Assembly (NCBI RefSeq): GCF_004010195.1
Contig: NC_057722.1
Coordinates: 43,036,229 to 43,100,228, forward strand
Direction of reading: 5' to 3'
Source: Chiloscyllium plagiosum
Taxonomy: Eukaryota
DNA: 64,000 nucleotides
The notes below the pieces were generated by a model that was not told where the DNA came from, made no database searches, and saw nothing but the letters and a program-made list of their open reading frames with translations. Below, in pieces: positions 4,734-55,633 of the stretch (position 1 is its first letter; each line of letters opens with the position of its first letter). Made by a program: the position numbers and the translations under genes.

Positions 4734-4803
4734 CAGAGCCTCGATTACCTGCAATAGATAGTAATTCTTGTTCAGCACAGAAACCTGGTCATGATTTTTA
4801 TTA

Positions 4804-5011
4804 GAGCTGAAAATGTGTTGCTGGAAAAGTGCAGCAGGTCAGGCAGCATCCAAGGAACAGGAGAATCGACGTTTCGGGCATGAGCCCTTCTTCAGGCTTA
4901 TGCCGAAACGTCGATTCTCCTGTTCCTTGGATGTTGCCTGACCTGCTGCGCTTTTCCAGCAACACATTTTCAGCTCTGATCTCCAGCATCTGCAGTCCTC
5001 ACTTTCTCCTC
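4804..5011. mobile_element. Palindromic PLE pLTR insertion A with 14-bp TSD
   Basis: Inverted arms. TSD catgatttttatta at 4790-4803 and 5012-5025. Confidence 0.92.
4868..4895 (-). ncRNA. Minimal hammerhead ribozyme motif (PLE type)
   Basis: Minus strand reads CUGAAGA-A-GGGC(UCAU)GCCC-GAAAC-GUC. Confidence 0.75.
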
Positions 5012-5353
5012 CATGATTTTTATTAACCTGGGTCTGAAAGTTAAATAAATTGGGGAATCTTTATGTATTTAGTTTAAAATCTGCAACTTTCATGATGAGT
5101 CTGGGAGCAGCAGGGCTTGATTCTAGTGTAGTATCACAGTGAATCACAACAGGGCCAGTTACTGGATGACAGAACTACATTTTACACTGCCACATGGCAA
5201 ACAGTACACAATTCTTTCCAGTCTTTGACTAATAAGTGAGTGCAGGTGGGCCACAAGTGGAAAGACAGAAACACGGTTCATAGATATTAGTACTCCACTT
5301 CCAGCCCTTCCACTGCTGGACATTTATTCAGAATTGAGATGAGTTGAACATGA

Positions 5354-5457
5354 CTTCTGAAGAAGGGTCACTGAACCTGAAGCATGAACTCTACTTTGTC
5401 TCTACAGGTGCTCCCAGATCTGCTGAGTTTCTTCAGTAATTTCTGATTCGGTTTCAG
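5354..5457 (+). mobile_element. Older PLE pLTR remnant with degenerate hammerhead motif
   Basis: ttCTGAAGAagggtcactgaacctGAAgc... followed by gctcccagatctgctgagtttcttcagtaatttctg, a pLTR-like 3' part. Confidence 0.6.
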
Positions 5458-9755: not shown

Positions 9756-12313
9756 AACAAAACGTGCATTTGCATACACATGTTTTTGAGGAAAAAAATC
9801 TCATTAGAAATTTGACTCTTTCTCACCACTCACTTCTCACCTCTGAATACTTAAAGCTAGTAAACCAAACAAAATTAAATCACCATTACTTCAAAACTGC
9901 TAACCCACAATTAGAAATAGAAAAATATAGTACAGAATTAACATTCTTGTGTTCTCATTTTGGCAAAGTTGGCTTCAATAATGTACTCTGATGCTTACTA
10001 ATACATCCGGTGCAAAGCAGCCCATAATGATAAGAGACAAACCTGGCTGCAGCCCAGCATACCATAGATAAGTTTCATGTAGCACCAGCTTTCAGAAAAA
10101 TAATGAAAAGAATGAAGCATGTTGAATAATATTCACAGTAGCAGAGAAAGGCTGACGCCACCAAGGAAGTGATGATTAACAGATCTAGGTAAACCATCTG
10201 AAACACTTCACCTTTTTTGATTCTTGAACCAGAAGTGTAGAATATTTCAAATTGTTATGGCTCTGAACTATCTTAGTTTAGCACAGTGTTACAACTTATC
10301 ATCTTTCAATTGTCAGATTTTCCTTTTTATTTCCTTCCTTCCTGTAAATCCAAATTAATGAAAAACAAAAGTGCCCAATTCATCCATGCAACTACAAGGT
10401 AATGAATTACATGCACAATGGAACTGACGTTCTTAAGGAACATGTATTATAAATCATTCAACAACATCAAAAATCTGCTCCATTGTTATTGCTCAGAAAG
10501 GTTGTGACAGAGCAGTTACAATCTGGCAAACCATTACATATAGCAGTTTTATTATAACCATGAAATATGAGACTTCTAGAATCATGAAGTAAAATCTTTG
10601 TAATGACTTGCCATACTGTAATATTTTCATAGAAAGGTGAGAAAGTGCGAATACAGAAATGGTCATTAGAATCCATGAGGCCCATCCCACTGTCCTTACA
10701 TATAGCATATAAAGCAAACTGCTCTAATGCATCCCTGAAAGATGATGAAACATACCAAACTTTTTGAGAGCTTATTTTGCCATATTGTCAGATTCCAATG
10801 AGTGCATCATAGTTCATACAACCATTTTTTAAAAAAATTAGCATATTGATGTGGCTAAAGTTCCCATTTGTGTGCTCTCCAGCATACAATCTATTTGTCC
10901 AATGAAATATTTAATAGGAAAATGGAAGAAAAAAAATCAAAAGCTCCAAATGGAATCTTGACAGTCATGAACTGATTTACCCAGGAAATAAACAACTAAC
11001 AAAATAGGCACAAACTTTTAACCTTCAATATAAAATAACCTGAAAAATAGAAGTGTATATTCAGAAGGGAACGCAACACAAGTGAACGTTATAAAGTGCA
11101 ATGATGCATCAGAACTGGCCTTTTTGAAATCCTTTGCTGAAGTTCTATGTGAAAGCTGCCTACATTTTCTTTTATTCATTGGTGGGACTTGGGCGTCACT
11201 GGCTGGCCAGCACTGATAGCCCATCCCTATTTGCCCTTGAGAAGTTGGTGGTGAACTGCCTTCTTGAATCGTTGCAGTCCACTTGCTGTGAGTTGACCGA
11301 CAATGCCAGTAGGGAGAGAATTCCAGGATTTTGACCACCATCTGTGAAGGAACGGTGGCATATTTCTAAGTCAGGGCGATGAGTAGCTTGGAGGGGAACT
11401 TGCAGGTGGTAATGTTCCCAAGTACCTACTGCCCTTGTCCTTCTAGATGGAAGTGGTCATGGGTTTGGAAGGTGTTGACGAAGAAATTTTGGTGAATTTT
11501 TGCAGTGCATCTTGTAGAGAGTACACACTGCTACTACTGAGCGTTTGTGGTGGAGTGATTGATTGTTTGTAGTTGTGGTGCCAATCAAGCAGATTGCTTT
11601 GTCCTGGATGGTATCAAGCTGCTTGAGTGTTGTTGGAGCTGCATCTATCCGGGCAAGTGGAGAGAATTCCATTACATTCCTGACTTGTGCCTTGTAGATG
11701 GTGGATAGACTTTGGCGTGTCAAGAGGTGAGTTACTCACCACAGTAGTAGTCTCTGACCTGCTGTTATGACACTGTGTTGATGTGCTGAGTCCAGCTGAA
11801 TTTCTGGTCAATGGTAACCCTAAGGATGTTGACAGTGGGAGATTCAGTGATGGTATTACCATGAAATGTCAAGGGGCAGTGGTTAGAGTGTCTCTTATTG
11901 GTGATAGTCATTGTCTGACATTTGTGTGGCACAAATGTTACTTGCTACTTGTTGACCCAAGCCTGGGTATTGTCCAGATCTTGATGCATTTGAGCACAGA
12001 CTGCTTCAGTATCTGAGGAGTTGCGAATTGTTCTGAACACTGTACAATCATCGGTGAACATCCCCACTTCTGACCTTATGACAGAGGAAAGGCCATTGAT
12101 GAAGCAGTTGAAGATTGTTGGGCCCCTAGGACATTACCCTGAGGGAGTCCTGCAGAGATGTCCTGGAGCTGAGATGACTGAACCTCAACAGCCACAACTG
12201 CAACCAACTTCCTTTGTGCCAGGTATGAGTCTAACCAGTGGAGTGCTTGCCCCCTGCCACTGATTGACTTCAGTTTTGCCAGGGCTCCTTTATGCCATAC
12301 TTGGTCAAATGTG

Positions 12314-12511
12314 AGCTGAAAATGTGTTGCTGGAAAAGCGCAGCAGGTCAGGCAGCATCCAAGGAACAGGAGAATCGACGTTTCGGGCATAAGCCCTTCT
12401 TATGCCCGAAATGTCGATTCTCCTGTTCCTTGGATGCTGCCTGACCTGCTGCGCTTTTCCAGCAACACATTTTCAGCTCTGATCTCCAGCATCTGCAGTC
12501 CTCACTTTCTC
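12314..12511. mobile_element. Palindromic PLE pLTR insertion B with 14-bp TSD, nested in LINE-B RT
   Basis: TSD cttggtcaaatgtg at 12300-12313 and 12512-12525. The arms are inverted and both CUGAnGA cores are lost at the apex. Confidence 0.93.
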
Positions 12512-13045
12512 CTTGGTCAAATGTGGCCTTGATGTCAAGGGCTGTCACTCTCACCTCACCTCTGGAATTCAGTTGTTTTGTCCATGTTTGAACCAAGGTT
12601 GTAATGAGATCAGGAGTTGAGTGACCCTGGTGAAACCCAAACTTGGTGTCACTAAGCAGGTGCTGCTTGGTAGCACTGTTGGTGACCCCTTCCATCACTT
12701 TACTGATGATGGAGAGTAGACTGATTGGATGGTAATTGGCCAGGTTGGATTTGTCCTGCATTTTGTGTACAAGACATACCTTGGCAACTTTCCACATCGT
12801 CAGATAGATGCCAGTGTTGTAACTGTACTGGAAGAGCTCGGTTAGGGGAGCAGCAAGTTCTGGAGTCCACATCTTCAGTATCATTGTCCGAATGTTATCA
12901 GGGCCCATTGCCTATGCAGTGTCCAGTCTCTCAGTCATTTCTTGATATTGCGTGGAGTGAATCAAATTGGCTGGAGATTGGTATCTGTGATGCTGGAACG
13001 ACTGGATGAGCCTGAGATGGATCATCCACTCGGTACATCTGACTG

Positions 13046-14415
13046 ACAAAAAAATGAAACCAGACAGACTACCTGGCATCGACTTTGGAACTGGAAAAGA
13101 CAATGGCAAAAACACAAACAGCCCTGTCGACCATGCAAAGTCCTCCTTACCGACATCTGGGGGCTAATGCCAAAAATGGGAGAAGTGTCTTGTCTTTTGC
13201 ACTGGTGTGTTGGACTCCTCCATCTTTGAGGATGGGAATATTTGTGGAGTCTGCTCCTTCAGTAGTTGTTTAATTGTCCATCATCAATTACGGCTGGATG
13301 TGGAAGGACTGCAGAGATTAGGTCTAATCCATTAGTTGTAGGATCACTTAGCTCTGCGTATCACTTGCTGTTTATGCCGTTTGGCACATATGTATTCCTG
13401 TTAGGCAGCTTCGCCAGGTGACACCTTATTTTTAGGTATGCCTGATGCTGCTCCTAGCATGCTCTCCTGCACTCTCCATTGAACCAGGGTTGATCTCCTG
13501 GCTTGATAGTAATGGTTGAGTGGGGAATATGCTGGGCCATGAGGTTGCAGAATGTGCTGAAGTACAGTTCTGCTACTGTTGATGGCCCACAGCATCTCAC
13601 GGATGCCCAGTCTCGAACTGCTAGATCGGTTCGAAGTCTGTCCCATCTAGCACAGTGATAGTGCCAAACAACACGATGGAGGTTATTCTCAATGTAAAGG
13701 CGGAACTTCATCTCCACAAGGACAGTGCAGTGGTCACTTTTACCTATACTGTCATGGACAGATGCTTTTGCAATCGGTAGATTAGTAAGAATGAGGTCAA
13801 GTATATTTTTCCCTTGTTGGTTCCTTCACCATCTGCCGCAGATCCAATCCAGCAGTTATATCCTTTAGGACCCTCCCAGATCAATCAGTAATGCTGCTGC
13901 TGAGCCACTCTTGGTAGTGGGCATTGAATCCACCTAACCAGAGTACATTTTGTGCCCTTGCCAACCTCAGTGCTTCCTCTAAGTGTTGTTCAACATGGAG
14001 GAGTACTGTTTCATCAGCTGAAGGAGGACAGTACATGGCAACCAATAGGAGGTTTCCTTGCCCATGTTTAACCTGACCACATGAAATTTCAAGGACTCTC
14101 AGGGCAACTACCTCCCAATTGTATACCCCTGTGCCACCAGCTATGCTGGGTCTGTCCTACCAGTGGGACAAGACATATCCAGGGATCGTAATGGTGGTAT
14201 CTGGGGCATTATCAGTAAGGTATGATTCTATAAGAATGACAATGTCAGGCTGTTGCTTGACCAGTCTGTGAGACACTTCTCCCATTTTTGGCATTAGCCC
14301 CCAGATGTCGGTAAGGAGGACTTTGCATGGTCGACAGGGCTGTTTGTGTTTTTGCCATTGTCTTTTCCAGTTCCAAAGTCGATGCCAGGTAGTCTGTCTG
14401 GTTTCATTTTTTTGT
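13046..14415. repeat. Perfect 145-bp inverted repeat (13046-13190 / 14271-14415)
   Basis: Base-by-base reverse complement with no mismatch found by eye. Confidence 0.92.
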
Positions 14416-15345: not shown

Positions 15346-15349
15346 ATGT

Positions 15350-15487: not shown

Positions 15488-15489
15488 AA

Positions 15490-17250: not shown

Positions 17251-17634
17251 AAGATAGAAGTTTACCGAGTTTCTGATAATGCAAGTGTAGGTGTTAAAAG
17301 TCAGAAAAATGGTGAACTATGTTTCAGTATTTATAAATAGGGGATAAAAAAATGGTAAATCCAATAAGGAACTTTTCAGAGACTTGAGATAATTCTGTGC
17401 CCATGGAGAAATTTCAGTTTGCCTGACAATCAGCAACCACATTAGCCATCTTTTAATGTTCAACTTAAAAGATAAGACCATTCCAGAAAATTTTATATGA
17501 AATACGGTCCACAGTTTAAAGTTATAAATGTGATATGCCTTTACTAGGCATGATAATGGTGTAATGATGGGAGGACAGATAGGTGTGGAGAGCAGATTCA
17601 TTCTGCATGAAGCTACTGCCATCTCCTTCAGCAG

Positions 17635-17853
17635 GGAGAAAGTGAGGACTGCAGATGCTAGGGATCAGAGCTGAAAAATGTGTTGCTGGAAAAGCACAGC
17701 AGGTCAGGCAGCATCCACGGAGCAGGAGAATCGACGTTTCGGGCATAAGCCCTTCTTCAGGAATTCCTGAAGAAGGGCTTATGCCTGAAACATCGATTCT
17801 CCTGCTCCTTGGATGCTGCCTGACCTGCTGCGCTTTTCCAGCAACACATTTTT
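17635..17853. mobile_element. Palindromic PLE pLTR insertion C with 15-bp TSD (1 mismatch) and hammerhead motifs on both strands
   Basis: Palindrome centred on GAATTC at 17761-17766. TSD catctccttcagcag (17620-17634) versus catctccctcagcag (17854-17868). Confidence 0.93.
17733..17760 (-). ncRNA. Minimal hammerhead ribozyme motif
   Basis: Minus strand CUGAAGA-A-GGGC(UUAU)GCCC-GAAAC-GUC. The mirror copy on + at 17767-17794 carries two CpG-decay changes. Confidence 0.75.
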
Positions 17854-18194
17854 CATCTCCCTCAGCAGCACTTCAACAATCCTACTAATTCATTTGGGAA
17901 TTGATTAATGGATTTCATGGACACTTTTCAAGCCACATGTTGTAATCCACAGTCATGAAGTAGCAGTCAGAGCCTACAAGATAGCAAGCTGATCTTACAT
18001 ATCTTCAATCTGGCTTCATGCTGCAGTATTCAGACATTGATTTGGTTTCAGCTTGTACTACCATGGAAAGAGCAACATTGACCTTCATAGGTTGCATCAT
18101 GCTTGGATGTTAATGGAGTTGATCATCATTTGTATAATGAAGAGGAAAAGTTCAACCACCGTGCACAGCACTGTATGAGTTACTCAGGTATTTA

Positions 18195-18462: not shown

Positions 18463-19533
18463 GTATCCTAGTTGTCCTGTCTTACTTAGATATGTATCAC
18501 ATTAGGTTGATTTCTGCAATCTTTAGGGCATACCCAACTTATGCAAATGGATCAGCCACCAACAGCTCCATTAAAACAAGAAGTTGGACACAGACCATAC
18601 TAATACTAAAAGACTTAAAGATTTATACTCCAAAACCACAATGTCTGGGGTTATTAGGTCTTCCCATTGAAATTGTTCTTTAGTAAAATTAACAGAATGA
18701 CTTTATTAAATGATAGTCTGAGTTTCTACCATTTTGAAGCTTTTGGAAAATGAATGCAAATGACCAATAATTTTTTTATTTTACACAATTATGTCAAGCT
18801 TTTGCTGAAATAAATGATAGTGAGCAGAATGATACCGTGGAAATCAAAGGAAGAATAAAATCAAGACAAATGCATTCACAGATTGTGGTATCCATTTGGA
18901 TTTTGTGGTTTATTGTTTGATTGGTTATGAGTTAATTGCCTGTAAATCATCAACTACTTATTGGAAATTATGTTGATAAACAAACTGCAAAGATGACAAT
19001 TAGTGGTTACTCATCATTTACTATAGAAAACTTGATGGTGCATTAAAAGGTGTTATTTACTTCCTCATGTTGATTTTCCATCTGCTTAGTGTAGCAAAAG
19101 AAAACAACAGCAGCAGTACATCATTTTATGGATACACAGTTCAAATATATCATTTAAGAACAAATGAGAATTTCACCTGAGGTGTACTTTGAGTGGGAAT
19201 GCCCAACCTGGGAAATAGCCAAAACTCTCATGATGCAGGTAAGGAGAGGTTCATCTGTGCCTGCTGCATATGTTATATTAAACTCAATTTAATAAATAGA
19301 AAACTGATGACGACTGACCATTTCCCCCACTCTTTAATGTCCAATCAGTTTGTGAACAAGAAGTTGATGCAATGTTCAGTGTATGCTACGCAATCAAAAA
19401 TGCTGGTCTCCCAAATCAGGATCATTGCTTTCTGCCATGGATCTTCATGTAGTGGAACAAGTTGACTTTTGATCCCAGATTTCGAACATTAGCAAGACAT
19501 GCCATGTGACAGTGTGATCCTGAGTAGAGGTTT

Positions 19534-19868
19534 TCATAGAATCCCTACAGTCAGAAAAGAGATCATTCAGCTCATTGATTCTACACCAACCCTCTGAAGA
19601 ACATTCCAGCCAATCTCAGTAATGCCACATTACCTTGCACAATCCACCTAGCTTGCACATCCCGGGATACTACAAACAATTTAGCATGGCCAATCCAACT
19701 AACCTGCACGCGTTTGGACTGTGAAAGAAAACCAGAGCACCCAACAAATCCACACAGCCATGGGGAGAATGTGCAAATGCTGCAGAAACAGTCACTGAGG
19801 CTTGATTTGAACGCAGGCCCTTGGTGCTGTGAGGCAGCAGTGCTAACCAGCAAGCCACTGTGCTGTCC
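19534..19868 (-). mobile_element. HE1-like tRNA-derived V-SINE (diverged)
   Basis: Matches the reverse complement of 33435-33746. Confidence 0.85.
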
Positions 19869-20953
19869 ATTTGCAGGTTCTCCCAGTTCTTGTTCAATGT
19901 TGTAAAAGATGGCCACGGAGACTCATTTATTCAAGAGAACCAAATACGTTTCATTCCCCCATACTACAGTGAAACAAATGAAGGGAACATACAGTTTGAC
20001 AAGGATAGCAAGCTAGTCTCTGGTGCAGGGTGCTATTGACTTCACAAACATTACTTTTTGTGAGTTGCACATGAATTTACAGATGTATCACAGGTGGAAA
20101 GCTTTGATTTAATTGTCTGGATGTCCAGGTTCACCATGTGCAGTGCTTCATGCACATCCATACTTGGTATCCTGGCAATAATGATGACACCTCCATTCTG
20201 TGACAGTCCACTACACAATTTGCCTTTACTGGGCATAACATGCCTCACACTTCTGTGAGTCCAAGTGCAAAACCAGAGAGTGGTAATAACAACAGCTGTA
20301 AACATTAGACATTGGGTTGACATAGAGAGGTTTTTGTTGTCAAACGTTTCCTAATGTGATCTTTAGAAAGCTGAGCTGGCACAGCTGATTCAGTATTAGA
20401 TCTCCTTGTTAATGCTAACTGTTCAACAAAATGGCCACCAAGGTATATTAAGTGCTCAATATTTTCCAGAAACCTTCAACATACATAGGAGGTCGAACAT
20501 TTGACTGATCAGATCAAATACATGAATTTGTTTTAGTAGCATTCAAAGATTGGCTGACACCCTTGTATATAGAAATAAAGGGTTCAAGAGTATTTTGTAA
20601 ATCTAGTGCTGAGTAGGCAAAGACACCTCAGTCATCTGAAAATCCTTCTACTACAGTGACACCTGAACTGTGTATCCAAGGAACATAAAAGAGCATAAGA
20701 GAACCCTGAATGGTTTTTCAGGGGTACAGCATAGATGTATTTGAAATGAAGATAGAAAACAACAAAGGGAGAAAAGAATAGAAGCATATGTTGATTGGAT
20801 TAGATGAAGTAAGTTGAGAGGAGACGAATGTGAGGAGCATAAATAAACCTAAATGTACTATATGTTAGATCTAGTTCTTTGTAAATATGGAACAATATAT
20901 GAAATTATGATGGAATATCCAACTCTGTGATCTCACCAGAGATAATGAATTAT

Positions 20954-21242
20954 TAAATTACTTACAGTGTGGAAACAGGCTCTTCGGCCCAACAAGTCCA
21001 CACCGACCCACCGAAGCGTAACCCACCCATTCACCCCTTTTACCTAACACTATGGGCAATTTAGCATGGCCAATTCACCTGACGTGCACATCTTTGGACG
21101 TGGGAGGAAACCGGAGCACCCGGAGGAAACCCACGCAGACAATGTGCAAACTCCACAAAGTCAGTCGCCTGAATCGGGAATTGAACCCAGGTCTCTGGCG
21201 CTGTGAGGCAGCAGTGCTAACCACTGTGCCACCGTGCCACCC
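20954..21242 (-). mobile_element. HE1-like V-SINE
   Basis: A/B boxes (tggcacagtgg; gggttcaattccc), V-domain and CR1-like tail on the minus strand. Confidence 0.92.
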
Positions 21243-21621
21243 AAGGTTAGCAAGGTTAGATCTCAATGAGAAGCCTTCTGCTTGCATTGATTTTTTTTTT
21301 AACTAGCCATCAATTTATGCTGAGTAAATATGCTAGCCATTAGTTCTCTTATTTGCAGCTTTTCTTCCTTATCTATTTATTGCAATAATGCCTCACATTG
21401 TTCACCACAACTATTTAGGAAAAGATGTCATGTTTAGTAAAGTGATTTCCTGAATGGTTTACCTGCCTATTTGAATATTTATTAAAGTTCTCATTACTAA
21501 AACTGAAAAATAAAAGTATTTGCTCTTTGCATTCTAATTTTTTTCATGTTATGCGGAAATTCCATCTTATTTTGTAATTTGAATATTGCTCTGGCAGATT
21601 GCAGTTTCATCCAATTAACAA

Positions 21622-21800: not shown

Positions 21801-23671
21801 TGTCCACTACACCTCCAATTTCGGTGTCATCTCCAAACTTACTAACTGAACCTCTTATGCTTGCATCCAAATCATTTATGTAAATGACAAAGTTAGAGGA
21901 CCCAGCACCGATCCTTATAGCACTCCACTGGTCACAGACCTCCAGTCTGAAAAACAACCCTCCACCACCACCCTTTGTCTTCTACCTTCGAGCCAGTTCT
22001 GTATCCACATGGCTGGTTCTCCCTGTAATCCATGAGATCTAACCTTGCTAACCAGTCTCACTTGGGGAACCTTGTTGAATGCCTATTGCTCTGCCCTCAT
22101 CAATCCTCTTTGTTACTTCCTCAAAAAACTCAATCAAGTTTGTGAGACATGAAGCCATGTTGACTATCCCTAATCAGTCCTTGCCTTTCCAAGTACATGA
22201 ACATCCTGTCCCTCAGGATTCCCTCCAACAACTTGCCCACTACCAACATCAGGGTCACTGGTCTATAGTTCCCTGGCTTGTCCTTAACACCTTTCTTAGC
22301 CAACTTCCAGTCTTCCGGCACCTCACCTGTGACTATTAATGATACAAATATCTCAGCAAGAGGCCCAGCAATCACTTCTCTAGCTTCCCATCGAGTTCTA
22401 GGGTACACCTGATCAGATCCTGGGGATCTATCCACCTTTACCCATTTCAAGACATCCAGCACTTCCTCCTCTGTAATCTGGACATTTTGCAAGGTGTCAC
22501 AATCTATTTTGCTACTTTCTATATCTTCCATATCCTTTCCCACAATAAGTACTGATGCAAAATACTCATTCGGTATCTCCCCCATTTTCTGCGGCTCCAA
22601 ACAAAGGCTGCCTTACTGATCTTTGAGCGGCCCCATTCTCTCCCTCGTTACCCTTTTGTCCTTAATATACTTGTAAAATCCCTTTGGATTCTCCTTAATT
22701 CTATTTGCCAAAGCTATCTCATGTCCCCTTTTTGCCGTCCTGATTTCCCTCTGAAGTATACTCCTACTTTCTTTATACTCTTCTAAGGATTCACTCAATC
22801 TATCCTGACTATACCTTATATGTGCTTCCTTCTTTTTCTTAACCAAACCCTCAATTTCTTTAGTCATCCAGCATTCCCTATACCTACCAGCCTTTCCTTT
22901 CACCCTAACAGGAATATACTTTATTTGGATTTTCGTTATCTCATTTCTGAAGGCTTCCCATTTTCCAGCCGTCCCTTTACCTGCGAACATCTGCCCCCAA
23001 TCAGCATTCGAAAGTTCTTACCTAATACAGTCAAAATTGGCCTTTCTCCAATTTAGAACTTCAACTTTTAGATCTGGTCTATCCTTTTCCATCACTATTT
23101 TACATCTAATAGTCTTATGGTTCTCCCCCACTGACACCTCAGTCATCTGCCCTGCCTTACTTTCCAAGAGTAGGTCAAGTTTTGCACCTTCTCTAATAGG
23201 TACATCCACATACTGAATCAGAAAATTGTTTTGTACACACTTAACAAATTCCTCTCCATCTAAACCCTTAATACTATGGCAGTCCAAGTCTATGTTTGGA
23301 AAGTTAAAATCCCCTACCATGACCACCCTATTATTCTTATAGATAGTTGAGATCTCCTTACAAGTTTGTTCCTCAATTTCACTCTATTAGGGGGTCTCTA
23401 ATACAATCCCAATAAGGTGATCATCCCTTTCCTATTTCTCAGTTACACCTAAATAACTTCCCTGGATGTAATTCCAGGAATATCCTCCCTCAGCACAGCT
23501 GTAATGTAATCCCTTATCAAAAATGCCACTCCCCCTCCTCTCTTGCCTCCCTTTCTATCCTTCCTATAGCATTTGTAACCTGGATCATTAAGCTGCAAGT
23601 CCTGTCCATCCCTGAGCCATGTTTCTGTAATTGCTATGATATCCCAGTCCCATGTTCCTAACCATGCCCTG

Positions 23672-23710
23672 ATTTCAACTGTCTTCCCTGTTAGGGAAGA
23701 CAGTTGAAAT
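23672..23710. repeat. Perfect 18-bp hairpin with a 3-nt loop
   Basis: atttcaactgtcttccct-gtt-agggaagacagttgaaat. Confidence 0.9.
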
Positions 23711-23874
23711 AAATGCAGTTTAATTTTTTAGTCCTACCTTGTCCCTGCCTGCCGTGACTGTTTGACTCATTTCTGTTCTCAACTGTATCAGCCTCAGATT
23801 GCTCTCTTTCCTCACTATCTCCCTGGGTCCCATTCCCCCCCCCCACCCCCCCATCCCGGCCCCCTCCCACCTTA

Positions 23875-24408
23875 CTAATTTAAATTCTCTCGAGCAGCTC
23901 TAGCAAATCTCCCTGCCAGCATATTAGTCACCATCAAATTTAGGTGCACACCGTCCTTCTTGTACAGGTCACTTCTACTCCAAAAGACATTCCAATGGTC
24001 CAAAAATGTGAATCCTCCTCCCATATACCAGCTCCTCAGCCATGCATCCATCTCCTTTATCCTCCTATTCCTGCCCTCACCAGCTCGTATCACCGGGAGT
24101 AATCCAGATATTACTACCCTTGAGGACCTCCTTTTTAAATTCCTGCCCAACTCCCTGTAATCTCCCTTCAGAATCTCAACCTTTTCCCTTCCTATGTCGT
24201 TGGTTCCAATGTGGACAATGATCTCTTGCTGGCCCCTCTCCCCCGTGAGAACATTCTGCATCCACTCTGAGACATTCTTGATCCTGGCACCAGGGAAACA
24301 ACAAACCATTCTGATTTTTCGCTGCTGGCCACAGAAATGTCTTCCTGTACCTCGGACTAGAGAGTCCCCTAACACAATTGATCTCTTGGAACTCGACGTA
24401 CTCCTCAT
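23875..24408 (-). pseudogene. CR1 ORF1p SGNH/GDSL esterase domain
   Basis: Blocks IVLGDSLVRG, CFPGARI, VHIGTND and DGVHLN. An upstream coiled-coil piece (RLERQLEAMRNLQ, 24489-24689) is in a separate ORF. Confidence 0.9.
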
Positions 24409-25586
24409 TGCATTCGAGCCAGTCTTAATACCAGAAACTTGGCTGTTCGTGCTACATTCCTCTGAGAATCCATCACCCCTTACATTTTCTAAAACAGCAT
24501 ACCTGTTGAAATGGGTATAGCCACAGAAGGTTCCTGCACTAGCTGCCCACCTCTCTTACCTTTCCTGGACTTAACCCATCTGTGTGAGTGTTTCTGAGAC
24601 TCTCCCCCCTTCCTATAACTGCCATCCATCACATACTGTTGCTGTTGCAAATTTCTCATTGCTTCTAACTGTCTCTCCAACCGATCCATTCGATCTGATA
24701 AGATTCACAACCAACAGCATTTATCTCAGATATAATCCGCAGTAACCCCTAAAGTCTCTTTAAACTCCCACATCTGTTAAGAAGCGCATATTACTCTTCT
24801 AAAGGCCATTTTTGCTCCTTCACAACCTACAGATTTATTCCTCTACAAAACACTGTCCCAGGTTAAATTAATAGTTACGGCTTATATTTTAAGTTTAATC
24901 AAGAGACATATCTCAAAAAACATATAATTCAAGAAAGAACCCACTCTACTCACTACTGCACACTTTCTGTAGGTCACACTTAAACACAATACACTTATCT
25001 GCTTCTGTGCTGTGAACTTTGCCAAAACAGTTCCTCCAAGATCCGTTGTGAATTTCACTGTTTGTTCATTTTCCCAAGCGCACTTCGATGTCCAGTGATA
25101 CATGAATTCAAACAGCAAAGGCAGTAACTGCACAGGTTCACTGCTGTGTCAGTTTCTCTCTCTCTCTCTCCAGCACTGTCCTCTTCATGTGCTTCCTTTG
25201 TTCTTCTTCCTTTTAAAACTGTTATTGTTTTGATTTTTTTTCCCCAAAGTTCCAAAATAATGCAACAGTATATAAAACAGTAATTGCCGCTCCTGGAACT
25301 CAAGGAAATCACCTCCAGCACCTAAAATGCCTCAAAAAAGGAGCAACTTTACAGCCAGAAATTTTCCCCATCCTCCATTATGTATTACCCAGAATCTTGC
25401 GTGGTGAAAAATTCAAAATCAATGCATTGTTCAAACAAAGAAAAGTTGCCTGCATTTTAGTGCTAAAAATTATTTCCTAAAGTATTCTTATTCTCAGAAA
25501 ATTTATGTTACCAATTTGTATATATCTACCATGAATTATTATGCTTTTTCTTTTCCAAATGATAAAACATGATGTTATACATGTTT

Positions 25587-25868
25587 TAGATTAGATTACT
25601 TCCAGTGTGGAAACAGCCCCTTCAGCCCAACAAGTCCACACCAACCCTCTGAAGAGCAACCCACCCAGACCCATTCCCCTACATGGCCAATTCACCTAAC
25701 CTGCACATTTTTGGACTGTGGGAGGAAACCAGAGTACCAGGAGGAAACCCATGCAGACACAGGGAGAATGTGCAAACTCCACACAGTCAGTCGCCCGAGG
25801 GTGGAATTGAACCTGGGTCTCTGGCACTGTGAGGCAGCAATGCTAACCACTGTGCCACCATGCTACCC
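25587..25868 (-). mobile_element. HE1-like V-SINE
   Basis: SINE consensus match with a (tagat)n tail and a possible TSD catgtt (25580-25585 / 25869-25874). Confidence 0.92.
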
Positions 25869-26171
25869 CATGTTGTTGTTTTCTGGTTTTCTGGTTTTCT
25901 GGCGGTTTATGTATCTTCACAGTGATGATGTATGAATCTGCATGAATACATGTTTCTCCTGTGTATAAATATTCCTAAAAACTTAACAACATTTAACCCA
26001 CCCAAAAGATAGACTGTTGTTAAGTTCCAAACCTTATTATCAATAGTAAGTGTCCAAGCAGAATGGAGACCAAAATTAGTAGCCAAAGAATTTGACTCTT
26101 TTTGTTTCTTTTCTTTTTGTGGTACATTTTTCCTGATTGTCATCCTTTGATTTTTACACCAAAAAGGCTTG

Positions 26172-34589: not shown

Positions 34590-34899
34590 TATCACCTTCA
34601 TCCCCACCCCCATTCACCCATTGTACTCTTTGCTACCTTCCCCACTCTCCTCTCTGACCTATCACCTCCATCCCCACCCCCACTCACTTATTATACTCTT
34701 TTCTACTTTATCCCCACCCCCATCCCCCTCTCATTTATCTCTCCACTCTGCAGGCACCCTGCCTCTATTCCTGATGAAGGGCTTTTGCCCGAAACGTCGA
34801 TTTTCCTGCTCCTCGGATGCTGCCTGACCTGCTGTGCTTTTCCAGCACCACTATAATCTAGACTCTGGTTTCCAGCATCTACAGCCCTTGTTTTTACCA
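34590..34899 (+). mobile_element. PLE 3' end (second subfamily) with pLTR
   Basis: Pyrimidine-rich PLE 3' region followed by a pLTR homologous to insertions A-D. Confidence 0.85.
34771..34798 (+). ncRNA. Minimal hammerhead ribozyme motif with canonical CUGAUGA
   Basis: CUGAUGA-A-GGGC(UUUU)GCCC-GAAAC-GUC. Confidence 0.8.
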
Positions 34900-34949
34900 T
34901 TTAACCAGCAAGCAATATCAAGTTAAGTATAAAGTCAGCTCAATGCAGA

Positions 34950-39552: not shown

Positions 39553-39877
39553 TTAGATTAGATTAGATTACTTACAGTGTGGAAACAGGCCCTTCGGCCC
39601 AATAAGTCCACACCGACCTTCCAAAGGAGCAACCCACCCAGACCCATTCCCCTACATTTACCCCTTCACCTAACACTACGGGCAATTTAGCATGGCCAAT
39701 TCACCTAACCTGCACATTTTTGGACTGTGGGAGGAAACCGGAGTACCCGGAGGAAACCCATGCAGACACGGGGAGAATGTGCAAACTCCACACAGACAGT
39801 TGCCTGAGGCAGGAATTGAACCCGGGTCTCTGGCACTGTGAGGCAGCAGTGCTCACCACTGATCCACCATGCCGCCC
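39553..39877 (-). mobile_element. HE1-like V-SINE
   Basis: Full-length match with a (tagat)3 tail. Confidence 0.93.
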
Positions 39878-41689
39878 ATTTTCTCAAATGTTTTCTGCTG
39901 TGCTAATAACCTTCCATTTGCCCCTTTATCAGTGTTGTCTGGGAGCTTTGGTAAACTGCTCATAACCCATTGTTGCCACAAATAAATACTACAATTAGCT
40001 GTGGGATGTTCTGACAGAGGTAGACTGGAAACCTTGCTAGTGTGAACCAATGAACATTTATTAACTATTTCCAGAGATCAGCAGGGATCCATTGGAATCT
40101 TTTTCCCTCAAATCCCAGTTCCAAGTGATCTGACATTATCTGACATCACTGAGTCACTTCAGCTATTAGCTCAACTATTAATTGCACAGACAACTATTTT
40201 TTATCTCAAAAACTAATTGCAGAAGTGTATTCCATTGGCTCAATTGTGCAAAGATGTTTCTCCTGTTCTCTGTTCTAAATGTCTTACAATTAAACTTAGA
40301 ACTTAAATATTGTTACTTTATAAAGAGCGACATAAGGAGTGCATGAACTCCAGCTGTACAAAAGGCTTGCATTAACATCTGAACTTTTAATGATCATTTT
40401 GTCCAAACCAAGAAATAAAATGCAAACTAATTATGGCAGGGTATACCGGCACACTGTTGATTGTCATTAAATTGCTCAAAAAAGGTTTATTTCTCCATTT
40501 TAATAGTGGATCAATCACATGTGAAATCTTCATTGCAAGTTTTAATTTAGGATAATTGGTTTACAATTAAAACAAGCTAGTGACGAACAAAAACCCATGT
40601 TCATCACCTGTGTTGTAGTTGATGGCACAGCAGTCAATAGGATTAATCATTGTCTGCAGCTTGGTTAATGTTTCTTTTGTCTTATTTTGTTTACTTTTTG
40701 CTTCAACATTCTGTATTTTTCTTCCTTTTTCCTTATTTGTTTTACTTCTTGGATACATCTGCTTTTCTCTTGGGAAAATAAAGGAAACAGGAGACCATTA
40801 TGCAAGTCATGCTATCTCGCAACTGCATCTGTTGAAAAAATTACCCCAAAAATGTTTATTCAATATGCCTTCCAATTTCTATTCCAGTTTATAGAAATAT
40901 AAAACAAATACAAGTTTTTTTATAAAATGTTTGTAATTTGGGGCTCCAAACACATAATAGCTAGTGTGAAACTTGATTATTATTGGGATTTAGTTCTCCT
41001 GCTACCAAATGCTGAGAAAACAAAGCCAGCTATTGAAAAACATGAATTCTTTAAAACTGAAAACTTTTTTATCTTAAATATTATAAATCTTGAAAACTGC
41101 ATTCTTACCTGTCATGGTTGCATTGTAAGCATTATTTTCATGTGTCATATACAATTGGTACACCTGACTTCCTCAGTTGACTAGTCTTGACGTGGATATT
41201 AAATTTGGTGACAATCGAGTTCCCTGTGAGGAAGCTTACAACATTGCTCTGGGGTAATAAACCTCTCGCTTCTCATTTCTCAAGCTGGTGGGACCATCAT
41301 TGAAGAGAATTACAAATATATTTATAACATTATAATATTCCCATGAAATCAACAAACTGTCTCTGCATTTAAAATATAACTTGCGTTAATTTGTCATTTG
41401 TAGTGCAAAGCTGGAATGGTGTGAGGCTATCTAAGAGAGGTAATCGCTTTACTGTGCTTGGAAGTTAAAGCGTAAACTAGACTCTGGAGTTATGCTGCTA
41501 TTTTCATTAACATTTCAACAGACAGGTAAATGGTTCAGCCAAAGCAAAGCATGATTTTATATGTTTTGGTCAAGAAAACACACTTTACATCAAAAATTCA
41601 TTTTTGAATCTACTGGCTAAAAAGCTTGAATTAATTTTGTTTTAGGAAATAAACAAAACTCCAGCAATTCAATTTTTAAAAAATACATT

Positions 41690-42139: not shown

Positions 42140-42362
42140 GGAGACAGTAAGGACTGCAAATGTTGGAAACCAGATGTGAAGCTGGAAAAGCACGCAATCA
42201 GACAGCATTCGAGGAGCAGGAAAGTCAATATTTCAGGCCGAAACACTTTGTCAGGACTGGGGAAGGGGAGGCAGCCTGGAAGTATATCGAGGGAATGGGT
42301 GGGGCTGGGGGAAGGGTAGGTGGGATGGTGATAGGTAGATGTCAAGGAGCAGGATAGTCAAC
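42140..42362 (-). mobile_element. Older PLE 3' end with degenerate pLTR and possible 14-bp TSD
   Basis: pLTR homology (ggactgcaaatgttgga...ctggaaaagcac...gaggagcagga). Flanks are gcctaccaagtgaa (42124-42137) and gcctatgaagtgaa (42366-42379). Confidence 0.75.
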
Positions 42363-44599: not shown

Positions 44600-46250
44600 A
44601 AGCCACTAGGGAGTAAATTCAGTAGCAGAACTTCATAGACACTAATACAGGATTGCTACCTGAGTCATGATCAAATTGGCATTGAGCACATAATATTAGA
44701 GAGTTAATTAAATGGTTAAATATTGGTGTAGAAGAAGGGGGTTTTGATTTGTGGGACACTGGCACCAATACTGGGAAAATTTGGATCCATACCATTTGGA
44801 TTGTCTTCATTTGAAACATGCTGAGAAAGTGTTCTAGTGAGGTGGATATCTATAGAGGCATTGAAAGGCAAACTAAATAATAGAGCAGAAGTATCAAGTT
44901 TGGGCATGTGATAAATTGAACACAGAAAATAATGTAAAAGAGCACAGTAGCAATATGAGAAATAATGATCAGAATGTGGCAGGGAGTAACAGAATGTGCA
45001 ACTCTAAGACTGCTGCAACAGAAAATAAGACAAAATAAGAAATAAGGCCCAGTATCTGAATACACAATGCACTTGTGAGAAAACAGATGAATTAACAGCA
45101 CAAATAGAAATAAATAAACATGATATGATAACCATTACAAAGATATTGTTGTAAGCAGCCAAAGATGAATATTTTAAAGTACATAATATGTAGAATGGAT
45201 TGGAAGCTTAGAAAGAGATAAGGTAGCTCTATTAATTAAGGACAATAGAGAAAGGACTTTAAGTTCTGGTGTAGAATCAGTTGTTTTAGAGATGAGAAAT
45301 AACACAAATTGGGAGTTTCTGGTGGGAAGGGTATATAGGCTTCTAAGCTAACCAGGGAGAAATAATAGAACCTTGTAAGAAATGTAAGGCAATGATCATG
45401 ATAATTTTAATTTACATAAAGGGTGAACAAGTTAGATCACCAAAAGTATCCTGAATGATAAGTTCATGGAATGTTTTCATGTTAGTTTCCTAAAACAGCA
45501 CTGTGAACTAGAAAGCAGCCCATAGAAGATTGGATAATTGAAATGAAGCAGATTTATTAATGACTTAATAGTGAAGCCACCCTGAGGACACAATTTGAGG
45601 GAAAGAGCAGTGAATCTGAGAATAATGCTTTAACATGAATAAGAACAATTGTAAATTATGAGGGCATGAAGACACAGCCAACTGTTGTGAACTGAGAAAT
45701 TAGGTTATGGGACAGGCCAATAGAGTTGTGGTGGCCGATGTTAGAAGTATTCTAGAATACTCACAGAGTGTTTTTCTTTAGTTTTCCTACAGTGTGGAAA
45801 CAGGCCCTTCAGCTCAACATGTCCACACCAACCCTCTGAAGAGTAACCCACCCAGACCCATTTCCTTCTGACTAATGCACCTAACACTATGGGCAATTTA
45901 GCATGGCCAATTCACCTGACCTGCACATCTTTGGACTGTGGGAGGAAACCGGAGCACCCAGAGGAAACCCACGCAAACATGGGGAGAATGTGCAAATTCT
46001 ACACTGACAGTCACCCAAGGCTAGAATCGAACTTGGGACCCTGGTGCTGTGAGGCAGCAGTGCTAACAACTGAGCTACCGTGCCAAAATGCACAGAAGGA
46101 AGAAATGTACCATCTGTGGCTAACTAAGAGGGAAAAGATAGTGTTGATAGCTGAAAGAGAAAAAGTATATAATTCTAACAAGATGAGTAGTAAATCCAAA
46201 AACTGGATGTAAATAAAATGCATGGAAAAATGTGGTTATGCAGCTTTAAC
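44600..46250 (+). mobile_element. Highly decayed CR1 (ORF1 end and APE region), interrupted by a SINE
   Basis: WCRRRGF*FVGHWHQYW..., YLNT...KTDELTAQIEINKHDMITIT. Confidence 0.65.
45779..46085 (-). mobile_element. HE1-like V-SINE
   Basis: SINE consensus match. Confidence 0.92.
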
Positions 46251-48954: not shown

Positions 48955-49308
48955 TGGGTGACATGGTGACTCAGAGGTTAGCATTGCTGCCTCACAGTGC
49001 CTGGGACCTGGGTTCAATCCCAGCCTCGGGTGACTGCCTGTGTGGAGTTTGCACATTCTCCCTGTGTCTACATGGGTTTTTTCTGGGTACTCCGGTTTCC
49101 TCCAACAGTCCAAAGATGTGCAGGTTAGGTGAATTGACCTAGCTATATTGCCCATAATGTTCAGGAATTTGTAGGTTAGGTGCATTAGTCAGGGGTAAGT
49201 GTAGAATAATAAGGTAGGGTAATGGATCAGGGTGGGTTACTCTTCAGAGGTTCCATGTGGACTTGTTGGGCCGAATGGCCTGTTTCCACACTGTAGGGAT
49301 TCTATGAA
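48955..49308 (+). mobile_element. HE1-like V-SINE
   Basis: A/B boxes, V-domain and CR1-like tail. Confidence 0.92.
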
Positions 49309-51579: not shown

Positions 51580-54500
51580 AATATGTGGCATACACAGGAC
51601 CGTTGGATGTTGCACAATTTGTGTTTCCCTTCGACCAGCATTGGACATTACACATGAGTTTCGCTAAATTGTGCACCACTGCGAGGCACAAGTTCAATTT
51701 GAAAGCACCAAAAGCATGTTGAAAATCACCTTTGACCAGCAAGTGACCCCTAAGCACCCTCAGTCTGCATGCATGACAAATAGGCAAGGGGAATGATTGC
51801 AAAGTAAATGTAGCTAGGGTTTGCAACTGTCTGCTTCATGTCTTTGTTGCTTCAGTGACTTTGTGTCCAGAAAATATGAATCTTGCCCTTTCCACCCAAC
51901 AAATTGAATTTTAATCTGATCACTCTGGACATTGTCCCAGCCATTTTCTGGGAGCACTTTGTATTTAGAGAATAGCAAATGATGGCAGGAATGAACATCA
52001 CAAGAATCAGACCCACCTTATTACCAGTTTTCATGACCATACCAAAGTCTCCAAGTCCCATTTTACCTAATATTACTCCAACAGCCCAGTTTCATCCATT
52101 CCCCCCCACATAGGCATCCACCACATTGAACATCCTCTCCAAATGTCCTCCCCCTTCCTGAACTCCAATGTTACATACTAATGATACCCAAAGTTCTCCT
52201 CTATACTCCCCTTTGGGGGCCGCATATAGATACTTCCACTAACACTCTCCACACTTCCTGTAGCCTGCCATTCCCTTTCATGCTATTTCATATAACCCTC
52301 ACTCATCTTGAGTTTCCTCCATTATGTCCTCACTTCCACATTGACAAATTCCTCTGCTTTACCCCATCAGACCTGAGTCTCCCACCTTGTCTGCTCCCTA
52401 CAGGATCTCAATGATCTCACAGGTGGGTTCAAAGGATGGATAGCGAAAACTGTTAAATGTCTGATTGGCTTGAACCAGCATCCCCTTGACATGACTAACC
52501 AGAACTCTGTGTTTGCAGCTTACTGACTGAAAGCACACAATTCTTTAGAGAGATTATTGATGGTCCTACCGACTGGCTACTGCCCATTCCCTGGACAGAT
52601 TTCTTAGATATGTGTATCCCAATCCATTGTGTGCAGACTGTACCCATGTCTGATGGTACTGAGACACTCCAACCAACAATATCTCCCCCTCAACTGCACT
52701 GAAGACTATCCCTCACCAGTTTCTGATATGGCCATTCAGTTGATGAATTTCCAATCTTCTGGCACATGATGTTGGTATTAGATTGAAGTCTCAGTCTGCT
52801 GTTCATCAAGATTACAGCCCCATGCCATCCACAGACCCTTACTGACAAGCAGCTTGTGGTGTCAGTAATAAAGACCACATTGATGTAACAACTCTAATAT
52901 GACGCATTAACACAATCGCACTAAAAGAATTTGGCTCTGGCTGAAGCACTTATGTGCTAAGAGGAAAAAGGCATGGCATGTCATGGCAATCCAGAACATG
53001 GATGTCACGGGTATGTAGGTTGGGGCTAACCGACCAAGTACTGAGATAATTAGCAAGTGACCCTGAGATACAGTCTGGTTCAATCCCTGAGCTGGCTGCC
53101 AATTCCATTTGTGTAAAGTGTCCGTGCTACAGCCTTTCAATGCCAGGCACCAATGCGACCTGCTCTTGCTGAATGGTTCCAAGTGCAGCAAACTTTGGTT
53201 TAAGCTGCACCTTATCAAATGGCATTCCTGATAAACCAGCAGAAAATATATTCTTCAAATACCACAATGCTCGAATATCTAGAAGAGCCATTTGTGTTCA
53301 GGGTCATGAAAAAAGATAGGACTGAAGGTGTTCTCCATTCACTTCCTGGTCTTTCTCAGCCTGTCTCCTGTGGGTTTCTTGATGAGTTGCTGGGCTTTCC
53401 CCCTTATGTAGGTGCCAGCGGTCCCTCCCTTGGCCGTGAGCAGGGCTGTGTCCATTGGTGGTTCAGCCCACCGCTTGTGGCCAGCACTGAGTGTGAGGGA
53501 GCCGGTGGCTTTGGTCTGCATCAGTGAGCTGCAACTGTGGATGGCCAGCTGCACAAAGTTTTGGTTGCCCTGCATGTAGCAGCCCGTTGCGCAGCAGTGC
53601 CTTCTGGAGGGAGGTGAGCAACAGGCCATCCTGATGTGCTGCTGCCTCTTTGACACTGGGCAGCCAGCTGAGACTTTGTCACAGTCAGCAGGTTGAATTT
53701 ATGCTGTAAGTAAGGTATTACAGTGATACCCCTGCATAATGTTTCTATTACTTACTGTATGTTGTTATATTGATTTTAAGAGGCAGGTGATGTTTTTAAC
53801 ATTTTTTTTAGGGGTGTTGATATCTCAAAGCTTTGCTTGGTCAGGATTTATTGCGATTGTGTACCTCTTGATGATCCAGAATATTTGATCAACTGGCTCA
53901 TTCCTGGTCCCATAGTTACCAGTTAATAAAATGTTTGTGAGGTACCACGACAGTCATGTGATGCTGGTAAAGGCCAGATGTGAATGTCTGTGGATCAAGG
54001 GTACATGCTTATACACTCCAGTAGCTTATGACCCTACTTAGTTGAATTGTGAATGTTTCTGATGATTTTGTCTTTACTACCTTGCATAAAGTTGTCCCTT
54101 TTTTCTACTGTAATGGCTTTGTGTGTGTATAAAGGTGGATTTAGCTTTTCTAAGCTATTTACTACTTTATACATTTTTATAAAGTTAGCTTAGTCGCTAC
54201 ATTCCATAGCTCAACTTATAACAAGGTTCAGCTTTTAAGATCTGCAGTGCACTGCCTCCCAGGTTTAAATATTTCCCTTGTGCCTTTGAACAGTAGAGAT
54301 TTTCTCTGTGCATGAATTGTAGCACACTTAAACTCATTGCTTATGAATACTTTATGGTCTCTATATAGCAAGCACAGCAAATCTTCCCTTGGGTGACCAA
54401 ACGAAGGCACAGTAGACAGAGCTCAGCAGTTGTTCTTCTGTAAAATTAGGACTTGGTTTTAACTTGGAGGCACATCCGATTTGGAGGGAGGTTATTTTAT

Positions 54501-55014
54501 GGTTGGGAAGCCCATTATTCCAACTTTAATGACCTGCAGCTTTTAACAGCTTGACTCCTTTAAAAACAATTCTATCAGATTCTGGTTCATGGGCAGTCTG
54601 GTGCAGGATTGATGAAGTCTGCCAAACACAACAGCAGCTGCAGTCTAGATAGGTAGACAGATAGGGCAAGAGAGAGATCATGAGCACTATCATGATAATG
54701 TTACAGGGAGGGTAAAGCAGAGCAACAGTTCAAATACCATCATGTTAGCTGTTGAAACTTGTATTCTGTAAATGAATAAATCTGGAATCTGAGCTAGTTA
54801 CAGTAATGATGGTAATAAAATGATTGTACTATTGTTAAAACCCCCCTGGTTCATAAATGTCTTTAGGTGAAAGAGATTTGTCACCATTATCTGGTTCAGG
54901 TTACATGTTACTCTAGACCCCCAGAATGTGATTGACTTTTTAATGCCCTCTGTAATGAACAAACAAACCATTCAGCTGTAAGAAACTGCTACAAAGAGGT
55001 CAAAAATAAATAAA

Positions 55015-55184
55015 GCAGGAGAATCGACGTTTCGGGCATGAGCCCTTCTTCAGGAATGGCGTGAAGAAGGGCTCATGCCCGAAACGTCGATTCTCCTGCT
55101 CCTTGGATGCTGTCTGACCTGCTGTGCTTTTCCAGCAACACATTTTCAGCTCTGATCTCCAGCATCTGCAGTCCTCACTTTCTC
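55015..55184. mobile_element. Palindromic PLE pLTR insertion D with 14-bp TSD
   Basis: TSD caaaaataaataaa at 55001-55014 and 55185-55198. A short inverted arm (about 43 bp) precedes the full arm. Confidence 0.92.
55026..55053 (-). ncRNA. Minimal hammerhead ribozyme motif
   Basis: Minus strand CUGAAGA-A-GGGC(UCAU)GCCC-GAAAC-GUC. The plus-strand mirror at 55061-55088 lacks only the first C. Confidence 0.75.
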
Positions 55185-55633
55185 CAAAAATAAATAAAAC
55201 CAAACATAAAACCTGTATTGACCTAGACACTTGAAAAGGACAATGGCACATCTTGTAACAGAGAACTCTGTAAAATCCTCTTCAGTAATATCTGGGGGCT
55301 TGTGTCAAAACTGGGAAAGCTATCATACAAACGAATGAAGTAGCAAACTGATAATAGTCATACTCACCATATCAATCAGTCAACCAGACTCCTCCATCAC
55401 CAGCCTTGGGTTTTTCCTCTCCCACCAGCAGGACACAATCACCAGAAGTGGTCGCACACTGTTATACAGCTGAGTGTGTGTTACCGCTCCTTGACAGCTC
55501 ATAGAATCAAGTCAAATATTAGAAAGAAAATCTCCTGCTGATTACCACCTGCACCCTCCCTAAACTAATAAATCAACACTTCTCCACAATGAACACAAAT
55601 TGAAAGAAGCACTGAAGGTAGCAAAGGTACCTT

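Follow-up and report, generated by a model that had tools for sequence, protein, structure and literature searches.

We analysed a stretch of 64,000 nucleotides from the bamboo shark Chiloscyllium plagiosum (assembly GCF_004010195.1, contig NC_057722.1, positions 43,036,229 to 43,100,228 of the forward strand; the whole stretch is called the window below), in which an original prediction, made from the sequence alone, had described four mini-insertions of a Penelope-like element (PLE). All four inserts were present in this 64-kb window, at 4804-5011 (c1), 12314-12511 (c2), 17635-17853 (c3) and 55015-55184 (c4), with c3 in the orientation opposite to that of c1, c2 and c4. Each is a hairpin of 170 to 219 bp in which a short arm, an inverted and 5'-truncated copy, is joined head to head to a long arm (4/4), and each has a target-site duplication (TSD) on its two sides. 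No trace of an open reading frame (ORF) was found inside any of them. The features of the four hairpins, among them the cores of minimal hammerhead ribozymes (min-HHRs), are the following.

4790-4803, plus strand: left TSD copy of c1, 14 bp, an exact repeat of 5012-5025
4804-4896, minus strand: short (tail-less) arm of c1, 93 bp, with a complete min-HHR core (C3 at 4895 on the minus strand); the apex cuts helix I to 1 bp
4895-5011, plus strand: long arm of c1, beginning within helix II of the hammerhead ribozyme (HHR); GG at 4895-4896 is common to both arms, and the 35-nt tail is at 4977-5011
5012-5025, plus strand: right TSD copy of c1, an exact repeat of the left copy
12300-12313, plus strand: left TSD copy of c2, 14 bp, an exact repeat of 12512-12525, within an old long interspersed nuclear element (LINE) reverse transcriptase (RT) remnant
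12314-12401, minus strand: short arm of c2, 88 bp, with an incomplete HHR core
12399-12511, plus strand: long arm of c2; CTT at 12399-12401 is common to both arms at the apex, and the 33-nt tail is at 12479-12511
12512-12525, plus strand: right TSD copy of c2, an exact repeat of the left copy
17620-17634, plus strand: tail-end TSD copy of c3, 15 bp, differing at 1 position from the second copy
17635-17764, minus strand: long arm of c3, with a complete min-HHR (C3 at 17760) and an unpaired 39-nt extension at 17635-17673
17763-17853, plus strand: short arm of c3, 91 bp, with a min-HHR core at 17767 whose helix III CG has decayed to CA; AT at 17763-17764 is shared, which gives a symmetric apex
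17854-17868, plus strand: second TSD copy of c3, 15 bp, with 1 mismatch to 17620-17634
55001-55014, plus strand: left TSD copy of c4, 14 bp, an exact repeat of 55185-55198, within an old LINE-like repeat
55015-55058, minus strand: short arm of c4, 44 bp, with a complete min-HHR (C3 at 55053)
55059-55061, no strand: apex of c4, 3 nt matching neither arm
55062-55184, plus strand: long arm of c4 with its tail; HHR core without C3
55185-55198, plus strand: right TSD copy of c4, an exact repeat of the left copy

The lengths of the short arms (93, 88, 91 and 44 bp in c1 to c4) agreed with the 43 to 92 bp or so that had been predicted. The long arms had been described as full copies of the pseudo-long terminal repeat (pLTR) of the element, and this was not borne out for c1, c2 and c4, whose long arms lack the 5' part of the hammerhead core. 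Nor is the 3' end of the hairpins strictly invariant, as had been claimed, since it is longer by 3 nt in c1 and by 1 nt in c3. The two arms of a copy mismatch at 4/84 positions in c1, 1/81 in c2, 4/91 in c3 and 0/38 in c4, several of these differences being CpG transitions, and the pooled divergence is only about 3% (9/294). The hairpins are thus of some age in the genome, as these mismatches within copies show, and do not come from reads folded back on themselves. The LINE RT remnant around c2 matched RVT_1 with E=4.9e-6, under the gathering score.

A descriptor scan of the window for min-HHRs detected six cores, all within these elements and their relatives described below, and none in each of 30 shuffles. 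The detected cores agree with the min-HHR consensus of PLE pLTRs (PMC4209133, Fig. S3). Rfam gave no match in the whole window at its gathering score, so the hammerhead call rests on the descriptor and on PMC4209133. The core is complete in four of the eight arms, and c2 has no complete core on either strand. The RNAs of the hairpins were predicted to fold into one long duplex (-98 to -173 kcal/mol). RNAalifold on six long arms predicted a 12-bp stem in which the tail is paired with upstream sequence of the arm and which encloses the proximal ends; it contains only 1 compensatory change.

Related copies and the identity of the element

A self-BLAST and motif search of the window revealed three further copies, none of them a hairpin. 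The original prediction of four copies in 50 kb was right as to the hairpins and left these three unlisted:

4243-4740 (upstream limit approximate), minus strand: c0, a PLE copy truncated at its 5' end and belonging to the young family of the hairpins, with an ORF remnant, a 3' untranslated region, a min-HHR (C3 at 4332) and a tail-less 3' end
about 34585-34898 (5' limit approximate), plus strand: c5, an older PLE 3' end, non-hairpin, with a min-HHR (C3 at 34771) and a tail
42140 to about 42340 (5' limit approximate), minus strand: c6, the oldest PLE 3' end, non-hairpin, with a tail and a decayed HHR

Four of the five young copies in the window are therefore hairpins, c0 being the exception. 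The ORF remnant of c0 (4617-4732) is frameshifted and contains a CX4CxxC motif (in 4617-4712, minus strand), and the position of a GIY-YIG motif would fall inside a gap of undetermined bases (N gap) at 4410-4615, which c0 contains. In c0 the arm is joined to this short remnant across the gap, and we take the remnant to be probably that of a PLE ORF. A homology search with it returned no candidate, a comparison with Pfam gave weak RING-finger matches under the cut-off, and the Atlas lead was an unrelated zinc-binding domain at 0.90. Since the database searches gave no name, this probable identification rests on the CX4CxxC motif and its position. Neither tblastn with the c0 remnant nor the list of ORFs revealed a PLE RT sequence in the window.

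A CX2-5CxxC linker upstream of the GIY-YIG motif marks the Neptune and Nematis PLEs (PMC8557442), and the CX4CxxC motif of c0 has this form. We read the arms as the pLTR end, with its hammerhead, of a PLE of the Neptune/Nematis type. The predicted pLTR origin of the arms, with a minimal hammerhead in the apex region, was supported.

The young copy c0 adjoins hairpin c1, at about 50 bp, and ends at the tail-less proximal site; the N gap may hide a more complex structure. The joining of c0 and c1 into a single element was considered and rejected, because c1 is bounded by a TSD of its own and lies about 50 bp away from c0.

Elsewhere in C. plagiosum, residues 78-104 of the predicted protein XP_043538280.1 are a translated antisense arm (85% over 27 amino acids, not spanning an apex), which shows that the family is present in the bamboo shark; this antisense arm suggests exonisation or an error of the gene model. 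Of the other two of the three matches in the search of representative proteins, one hit an unrelated repeat protein by chance and one had no aligned stretch. A protein search with the read-through frame of c1 gave no candidate, and an exact scan for the arm in a prokaryotic genome collection gave 0 loci.

Target sites, apexes and tails

The direct repeats that abut the hairpins are exact over 14 bp at c1, c2 and c4 and extend over 15 bp with one mismatch at c3, as predicted; the true length at c3 could be 13 to 15 bp, since the final two bases of its repeat agree with the element as well. No duplication was seen past the TSD in the flanks. Of 19,833 random intervals of the same sizes, three gave a repeat of 14 bp, and all three draws fell on c2 or c4; the other 19,830 had no flanking repeat of more than 10 bp. 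The target of c2 is single-copy in a paralogous LINE at about 58100 and that of c4 in a paralogue at about 14400, and in each case the two flanks, aligned separately, meet there (2/2). The repeats at c2 and c4 are true TSDs, because the paralogous LINE copies carry the target once. For c4, three further paralogous stretches that we tried covered one flank only or aligned less fully, and no paralogue of the target of c1 or c3 was found in the window.

The four lengths (14, 14, 15 and 14 bp; n=4, from one window) have a probability of 0.005 under a uniform law from 7 to 20 and of 0.017 under a standard deviation (SD) of 3, and of 0.05 and 0.12 under SDs of 2 and 1.5, respectively. The TSD length of the four hairpins is narrow, 14-15 bp, and the values support 'narrow' and not 'fixed', since they are also compatible with an SD of 1.5-2. 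The fixed stagger of about 14 nt that had been proposed is thus supported in part: the range is narrow (P=0.005 under the uniform law from 7 to 20), while fixity goes too far (P=0.12 at an SD of 1.5). A 14-15-bp TSD was present at all four hairpins, and a clear one at none of c0, c5 and c6, with nothing found at c0 or c6. The older, non-hairpin copy c5 has a possible decayed TSD of about 13 bp (10/13 match, 34572-34584 and 34899-34911); if it is real, the length of about 14 bp is not specific to hairpins.

The apex junctions differ in all four hairpins: the arms overlap by GG in c1, CTT in c2 and AT in c3, and are separated by 3 untemplated nt in c4. With +1 set at the A of the hammerhead's 5' edge, the 5' ends of the arms are at 0, +1, +1, +4, +6, +8, +14 and +16, so that all eight lie within a 17-nt interval at this edge, near which the similarity among c0, c5 and c6 also begins. 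We rejected the cleavage site of the ribozyme as the position of the apex: in the sense direction, the apexes lie upstream of this site by 17-33 nt. Ribozyme cleavage does not define the apex, because the arms start upstream of the site.

An initiator-like pyrimidine-A-pyrimidine motif lies at the 5' edge of the hammerhead in c0 (4328-4336, minus strand), c5 (about 34765-34771) and c6 (about 42256-42262, minus strand). It is thus present in three subfamilies, at the edge where both arms of c3 begin; that of c6 also resembles a splice acceptor. The initiator consensus that we assumed for this comparison is degenerate, and such a match is weak evidence.

The ends of the short arms also differ in all four hairpins. 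The long arm exceeds the short one by 35 nt in c1, 33 nt in c2, 39 nt in c3 and 85 nt in c4, and the differences in c1 to c3 match the published one-sided tail of PLEs (30-40 bp; PMC8557442), which was missed when the shortening of the arm was first read as variable. At the short-arm junction, the last 1, 1, 2 and 1 nt of the TSD (c1 to c4) match the continuation of the element, and at the long-arm junction all four TSDs start with C, beside the C-rich terminus of the arm. All eight target junctions therefore have 1-2 nt of matching sequence.

Origin of the hairpins

We favour, with moderate confidence, the view that each hairpin is an independent minimal insertion of a Neptune/Nematis-type PLE via twin target-primed reverse transcription. 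A PLE RT-GIY-YIG protein, probably acting as a dimer, would nick both strands about 14 nt apart and leave 3' overhangs, which would become the TSDs that are observed. Each 3'-OH would then pair by the 1-2 nt seen at the junctions with the PLE RNA and prime reverse transcription at one of two sites, a distal start that would yield the tail and a proximal start 33-39 nt upstream or earlier. Only about 95-130 nt would lie between these starts and the hammerhead's 5' edge, a position that is probably close to the RNA 5' end, so that both complementary DNAs (cDNAs) would run off at the hammerhead edge; the 5' ends of the arms do cluster at this edge, which may be the RNA 5' end itself. The cDNA 3' ends would anneal by 2-3 nt or be joined with a few untemplated bases, as the junctions have it, and repair would presumably complete the head-to-head hairpin. 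The hairpins are predicted to be dead-end products, as their ribozyme is often cut and, in RNA, locked in a duplex of about 80-90 bp (about 40 bp in c4).

Several observations weigh against twin priming. The four hairpins behind it all come from one window. The loop is on the short arm in all three asymmetric apexes (c1, c2 and c4), whereas an even split, about 50:50, is the expectation under twin priming (P~0.125). Within a copy, the arms mostly share variants at three polymorphic sites (in 4/4, 3/4 and 3/3 copies), and mostly concordant arms require that both cDNAs came from the same RNA or from the same source locus. The short arm of c4 stops 85 nt from the long end, off the usual proximal site. 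Finally, the folding of single arms was not significant against shuffles for the young arms (z -1.0 to -1.1; c5, z -2.1).

Two of these points speak for a snap-back self-priming. In this unlikely but not negligible alternative, an antisense RNA of the pLTR would fold back at the 3' end and serve as its own primer for a sense cDNA, and the hairpin would integrate at a staggered cut; it has been proposed for the palindromic head-to-head junctions of Adineta PLEs (PMC3846280). Antisense self-priming predicts the loop on the short (antisense) arm that was found in all three asymmetric copies, and the arms within a copy do mostly share their variants. However, self-priming alone gives no account of the matches between target and template at both ends (8/8), and it leaves unexplained the two fixed 3' ends, which equal the sense-strand RT start sites of PAc, the Poseidon element of Anolis carolinensis (PMC11167929). 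The discordant copy is c1, whose arms differ next to the apex at a site that segregates in the family, as expected if the arms stem from two templates. A snap-back of the first cDNA, as DNA, was also considered and rejected, since the long arm is without a loop in 3/3 copies and the short arm cannot template the tail.

A collapse after insertion seems improbable to us. An inverted pLTR followed by a pLTR-ORF-pLTR unit and a tail would lose its ORF by recombination between the direct pLTRs, in the manner of a solo LTR, and the hairpin would remain with the original TSD. Such a deletion from the canonical structure of Pen2a_Av (PMC3846280) gives exactly the anatomy of the hairpins. The proportion of hairpins among the young copies (4/5) and the low divergence of the arms argue against it, because a collapse between repeats of about 130 bp would have to be very fast, and so does the lack of any ORF trace within the hairpins.

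We consider it very unlikely that the hairpin is itself a non-autonomous amplifying element, of the retrozyme or miniature inverted-repeat transposable element (MITE) type, which was one of the two readings first offered. The inserts are dense locally (4 in 64 kb), of similar size and with a narrow TSD length, and some arms carry a min-HHR. However, the apexes and the short-arm ends are unique in 4/4 copies, the former being what the original prediction itself had named as evidence to the contrary, the HHR is complete in only half of the arms and in none of c2, and the RNA would fold into a single long duplex. The two ends are not inverted repeats of each other, one of them having an unpaired extension of 33-85 nt, so that terminal inverted repeats do not reach both ends as they would in a MITE. 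The units are also single and head to head, while retrozymes are head-to-tail tandems with an HHR per unit (bioRxiv 10.64898/2026.07.22.740005). The other of the first two readings, a stereotyped product of PLE retrotransposition, was supported.

An artefact of assembly or library, such as a fold-back chimera, is unlikely in the extreme: the N gap within c0 and an unexplained 145-bp perfect inverted copy (13046-13190 and 14271-14415) speak for it, and the independently aged arms, the TSDs, the unique flanks and the empty target in paralogues speak against it. The 145-bp inverted copy, 100% identical, lies inside an old LINE, where it replaces about 320 bp relative to a paralogue, and its right edge shows a short direct overlap; it would be a misassembly or else a recent insertion that was templated and accompanied by a deletion.

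Twin priming may be extended, as a tentative proposal, to the default PLE product. This would be a two-ended reaction in which a dimeric RT-GIY-YIG protein makes a ruler-like double nick of about 14 nt and reverse transcribes from both 3' overhangs, using starts near the RNA 5' end. Because of the position of these starts, unit-length transcripts would give only hairpins of about 200 bp, while read-through tandem transcripts would give the ORF-bearing copies. If true, this mechanism alone would account, across PLEs, for the inverted pLTR, for the tail on one side and for why tandem copies are needed, and shark genomes would be a very large natural library that records where each strand was nicked, where each RT start lay and where the RNA has its 5' end.

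The origin of the tandem and inverted pLTR structures and of the tail is described as an undefined feature of the PLE transposition cycle (PMC8557442). In about 200 bp, a minimal hairpin with a clean TSD keeps a record of the two nicks, the two priming sites and the two cDNA ends, so that counting them across shark assemblies could directly distinguish twin priming from self-priming and give the stagger of the GIY-YIG endonuclease. The density of four in 64 kb suggests abundance, as seen in one window. Perfect palindromes of about 90 bp may also matter as sources of double-stranded RNA, through cruciform fragility and through misannotation as MITEs.

Three other features of the window were recorded. 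A short interspersed nuclear element (SINE)-like family is present as seven copies of about 310 bp, whose flanking repeats of 7-10 bp are not above background (7-13 bp in 144/150 controls), so that they give no TSD comparison:

19533-19872, 20944-21248, 25582-25880, 33434-33755, 39554-39883, 45769-46094 and 48955-49308: SINE-like copies

The ORF1-like frame of a LINE remnant at 22130-24555 (minus strand) matches the GDSL/SGNH esterase domain (Pfam PF13472, E=1.3e-10), which is presumably typical of ORF1 of the CR1/L2 type. The imperfect 39-bp palindrome at 23672-23710 is unrelated to the PLE arm.

Comparison with known systems

The hairpins show neither the inverted repeats at both termini nor the interior conserved across copies that characterise MITEs and fold-back DNA transposons. 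Another parallel is the twin priming of L1, in which two target 3' ends prime reverse transcription and microhomology joins the cDNAs, giving an inversion within a TSD of about 15 bp. The cDNAs of L1 copy different parts of one RNA, whereas both arms of the hairpins copy the same 100 nt or so, and the endonuclease of L1 is of the apurinic/apyrimidinic (APE) type, in contrast to the GIY-YIG endonuclease of PLEs.

Non-LTR retrozymes, which consist of two or more units in head-to-tail tandem, each with its own HHR, resemble the hairpins in that they are ORF-less, derived from pLTRs, provided with a type I HHR and present in a chondrichthyan (bioRxiv 10.64898/2026.07.22.740005). The hairpins differ from them as single head-to-head units with unique junctions, against tandems with complete HHRs in consecutive units. 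The ribozymes themselves resemble the minimal type I hammerheads of metazoan PLEs (PMC4209133): they share CUGANGA, the extra nucleotide after position 9, G10.1-C11.1, a 4-bp helix II, GAAA, the palindromic CG, the UC cleavage site and a 2-bp helix I. No shark motif is among the 56 of Fig. S3 of PMC4209133. In Schistosoma mansoni, dual min-HHRs lie on opposite strands about 100-700 bp apart (PMC4209133), whereas the two predicted HHRs of a hairpin abut at the apex, and half of those in the hairpins are truncated.

The PAc protein cleaves and extends both strands in vitro and was modelled as a dimer; its RT has two internal starts, 111-118 nt into the ORF, which bracket the tail, with the HHR at the start of the ORF, and the later steps are left unvalidated in that study (PMC11167929). 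PAc resembles what is proposed for the hairpins in that both strands are cleaved and extended and in having two RT starts that are separated by the tail, about 110-120 nt downstream of the HHR and in an AC-rich region. It differs in belonging to the Poseidon clade, which has no CX2-5CxxC linker, while the c0 remnant has one, and in an RT start described as non-homologous to the target (PMC11167929), where the hairpins show matches of 1-2 nt. A term search of the main text of PMC11167929 found no TSD, stagger or hairpin product, on which its supplement may bear.

PLE insertions often include a 5'-truncated copy in inverted orientation, together with a tail of 30-40 bp on one side (PMC8557442, PMC2377424, PMC8969392), form C of Drosophila virilis being an example (PMC2377424). 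In Pen2a_Av of Adineta, the inverted pLTR overlaps the direct one and is 37 bp shorter, the tail is of 31 bp and the TSD of 9 bp; other named insertions of A. vaga have a TSD of 10 bp, of 8 bp or none (PMC3846280). The contrast that had been drawn between the hairpins and variable PLE TSDs is therefore weaker than claimed, although the 14-15 bp of the hairpins differ from the 8-10 bp named for the PLEs of A. vaga. The hairpins share with endonuclease-containing (EN+) PLE insertions the head-to-head inverted pLTRs, the tail at one end, the overlap or palindrome at the inverted junction, the TSD around the whole unit and the min-HHR in the pLTR. Unlike them, they have neither an ORF nor a second direct pLTR between the arms, measure 170-219 bp in all and are the commonest young product here (4/5).

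ORF-less PLE hairpins with a 14-15-bp TSD, and the structure of shark PLEs, were absent from the titles and abstracts searched; a description in subscription reviews, Repbase or Dfam is quite possible. What looks unreported is that ORF-less hairpins are the main product among young copies and that their TSD is narrow, at 14-15 bp. The hairpins are not a new class of element: their inverted-plus-tail layout is already published, and by the features tested they belong to that class of PLE insertions, reduced to its minimum.

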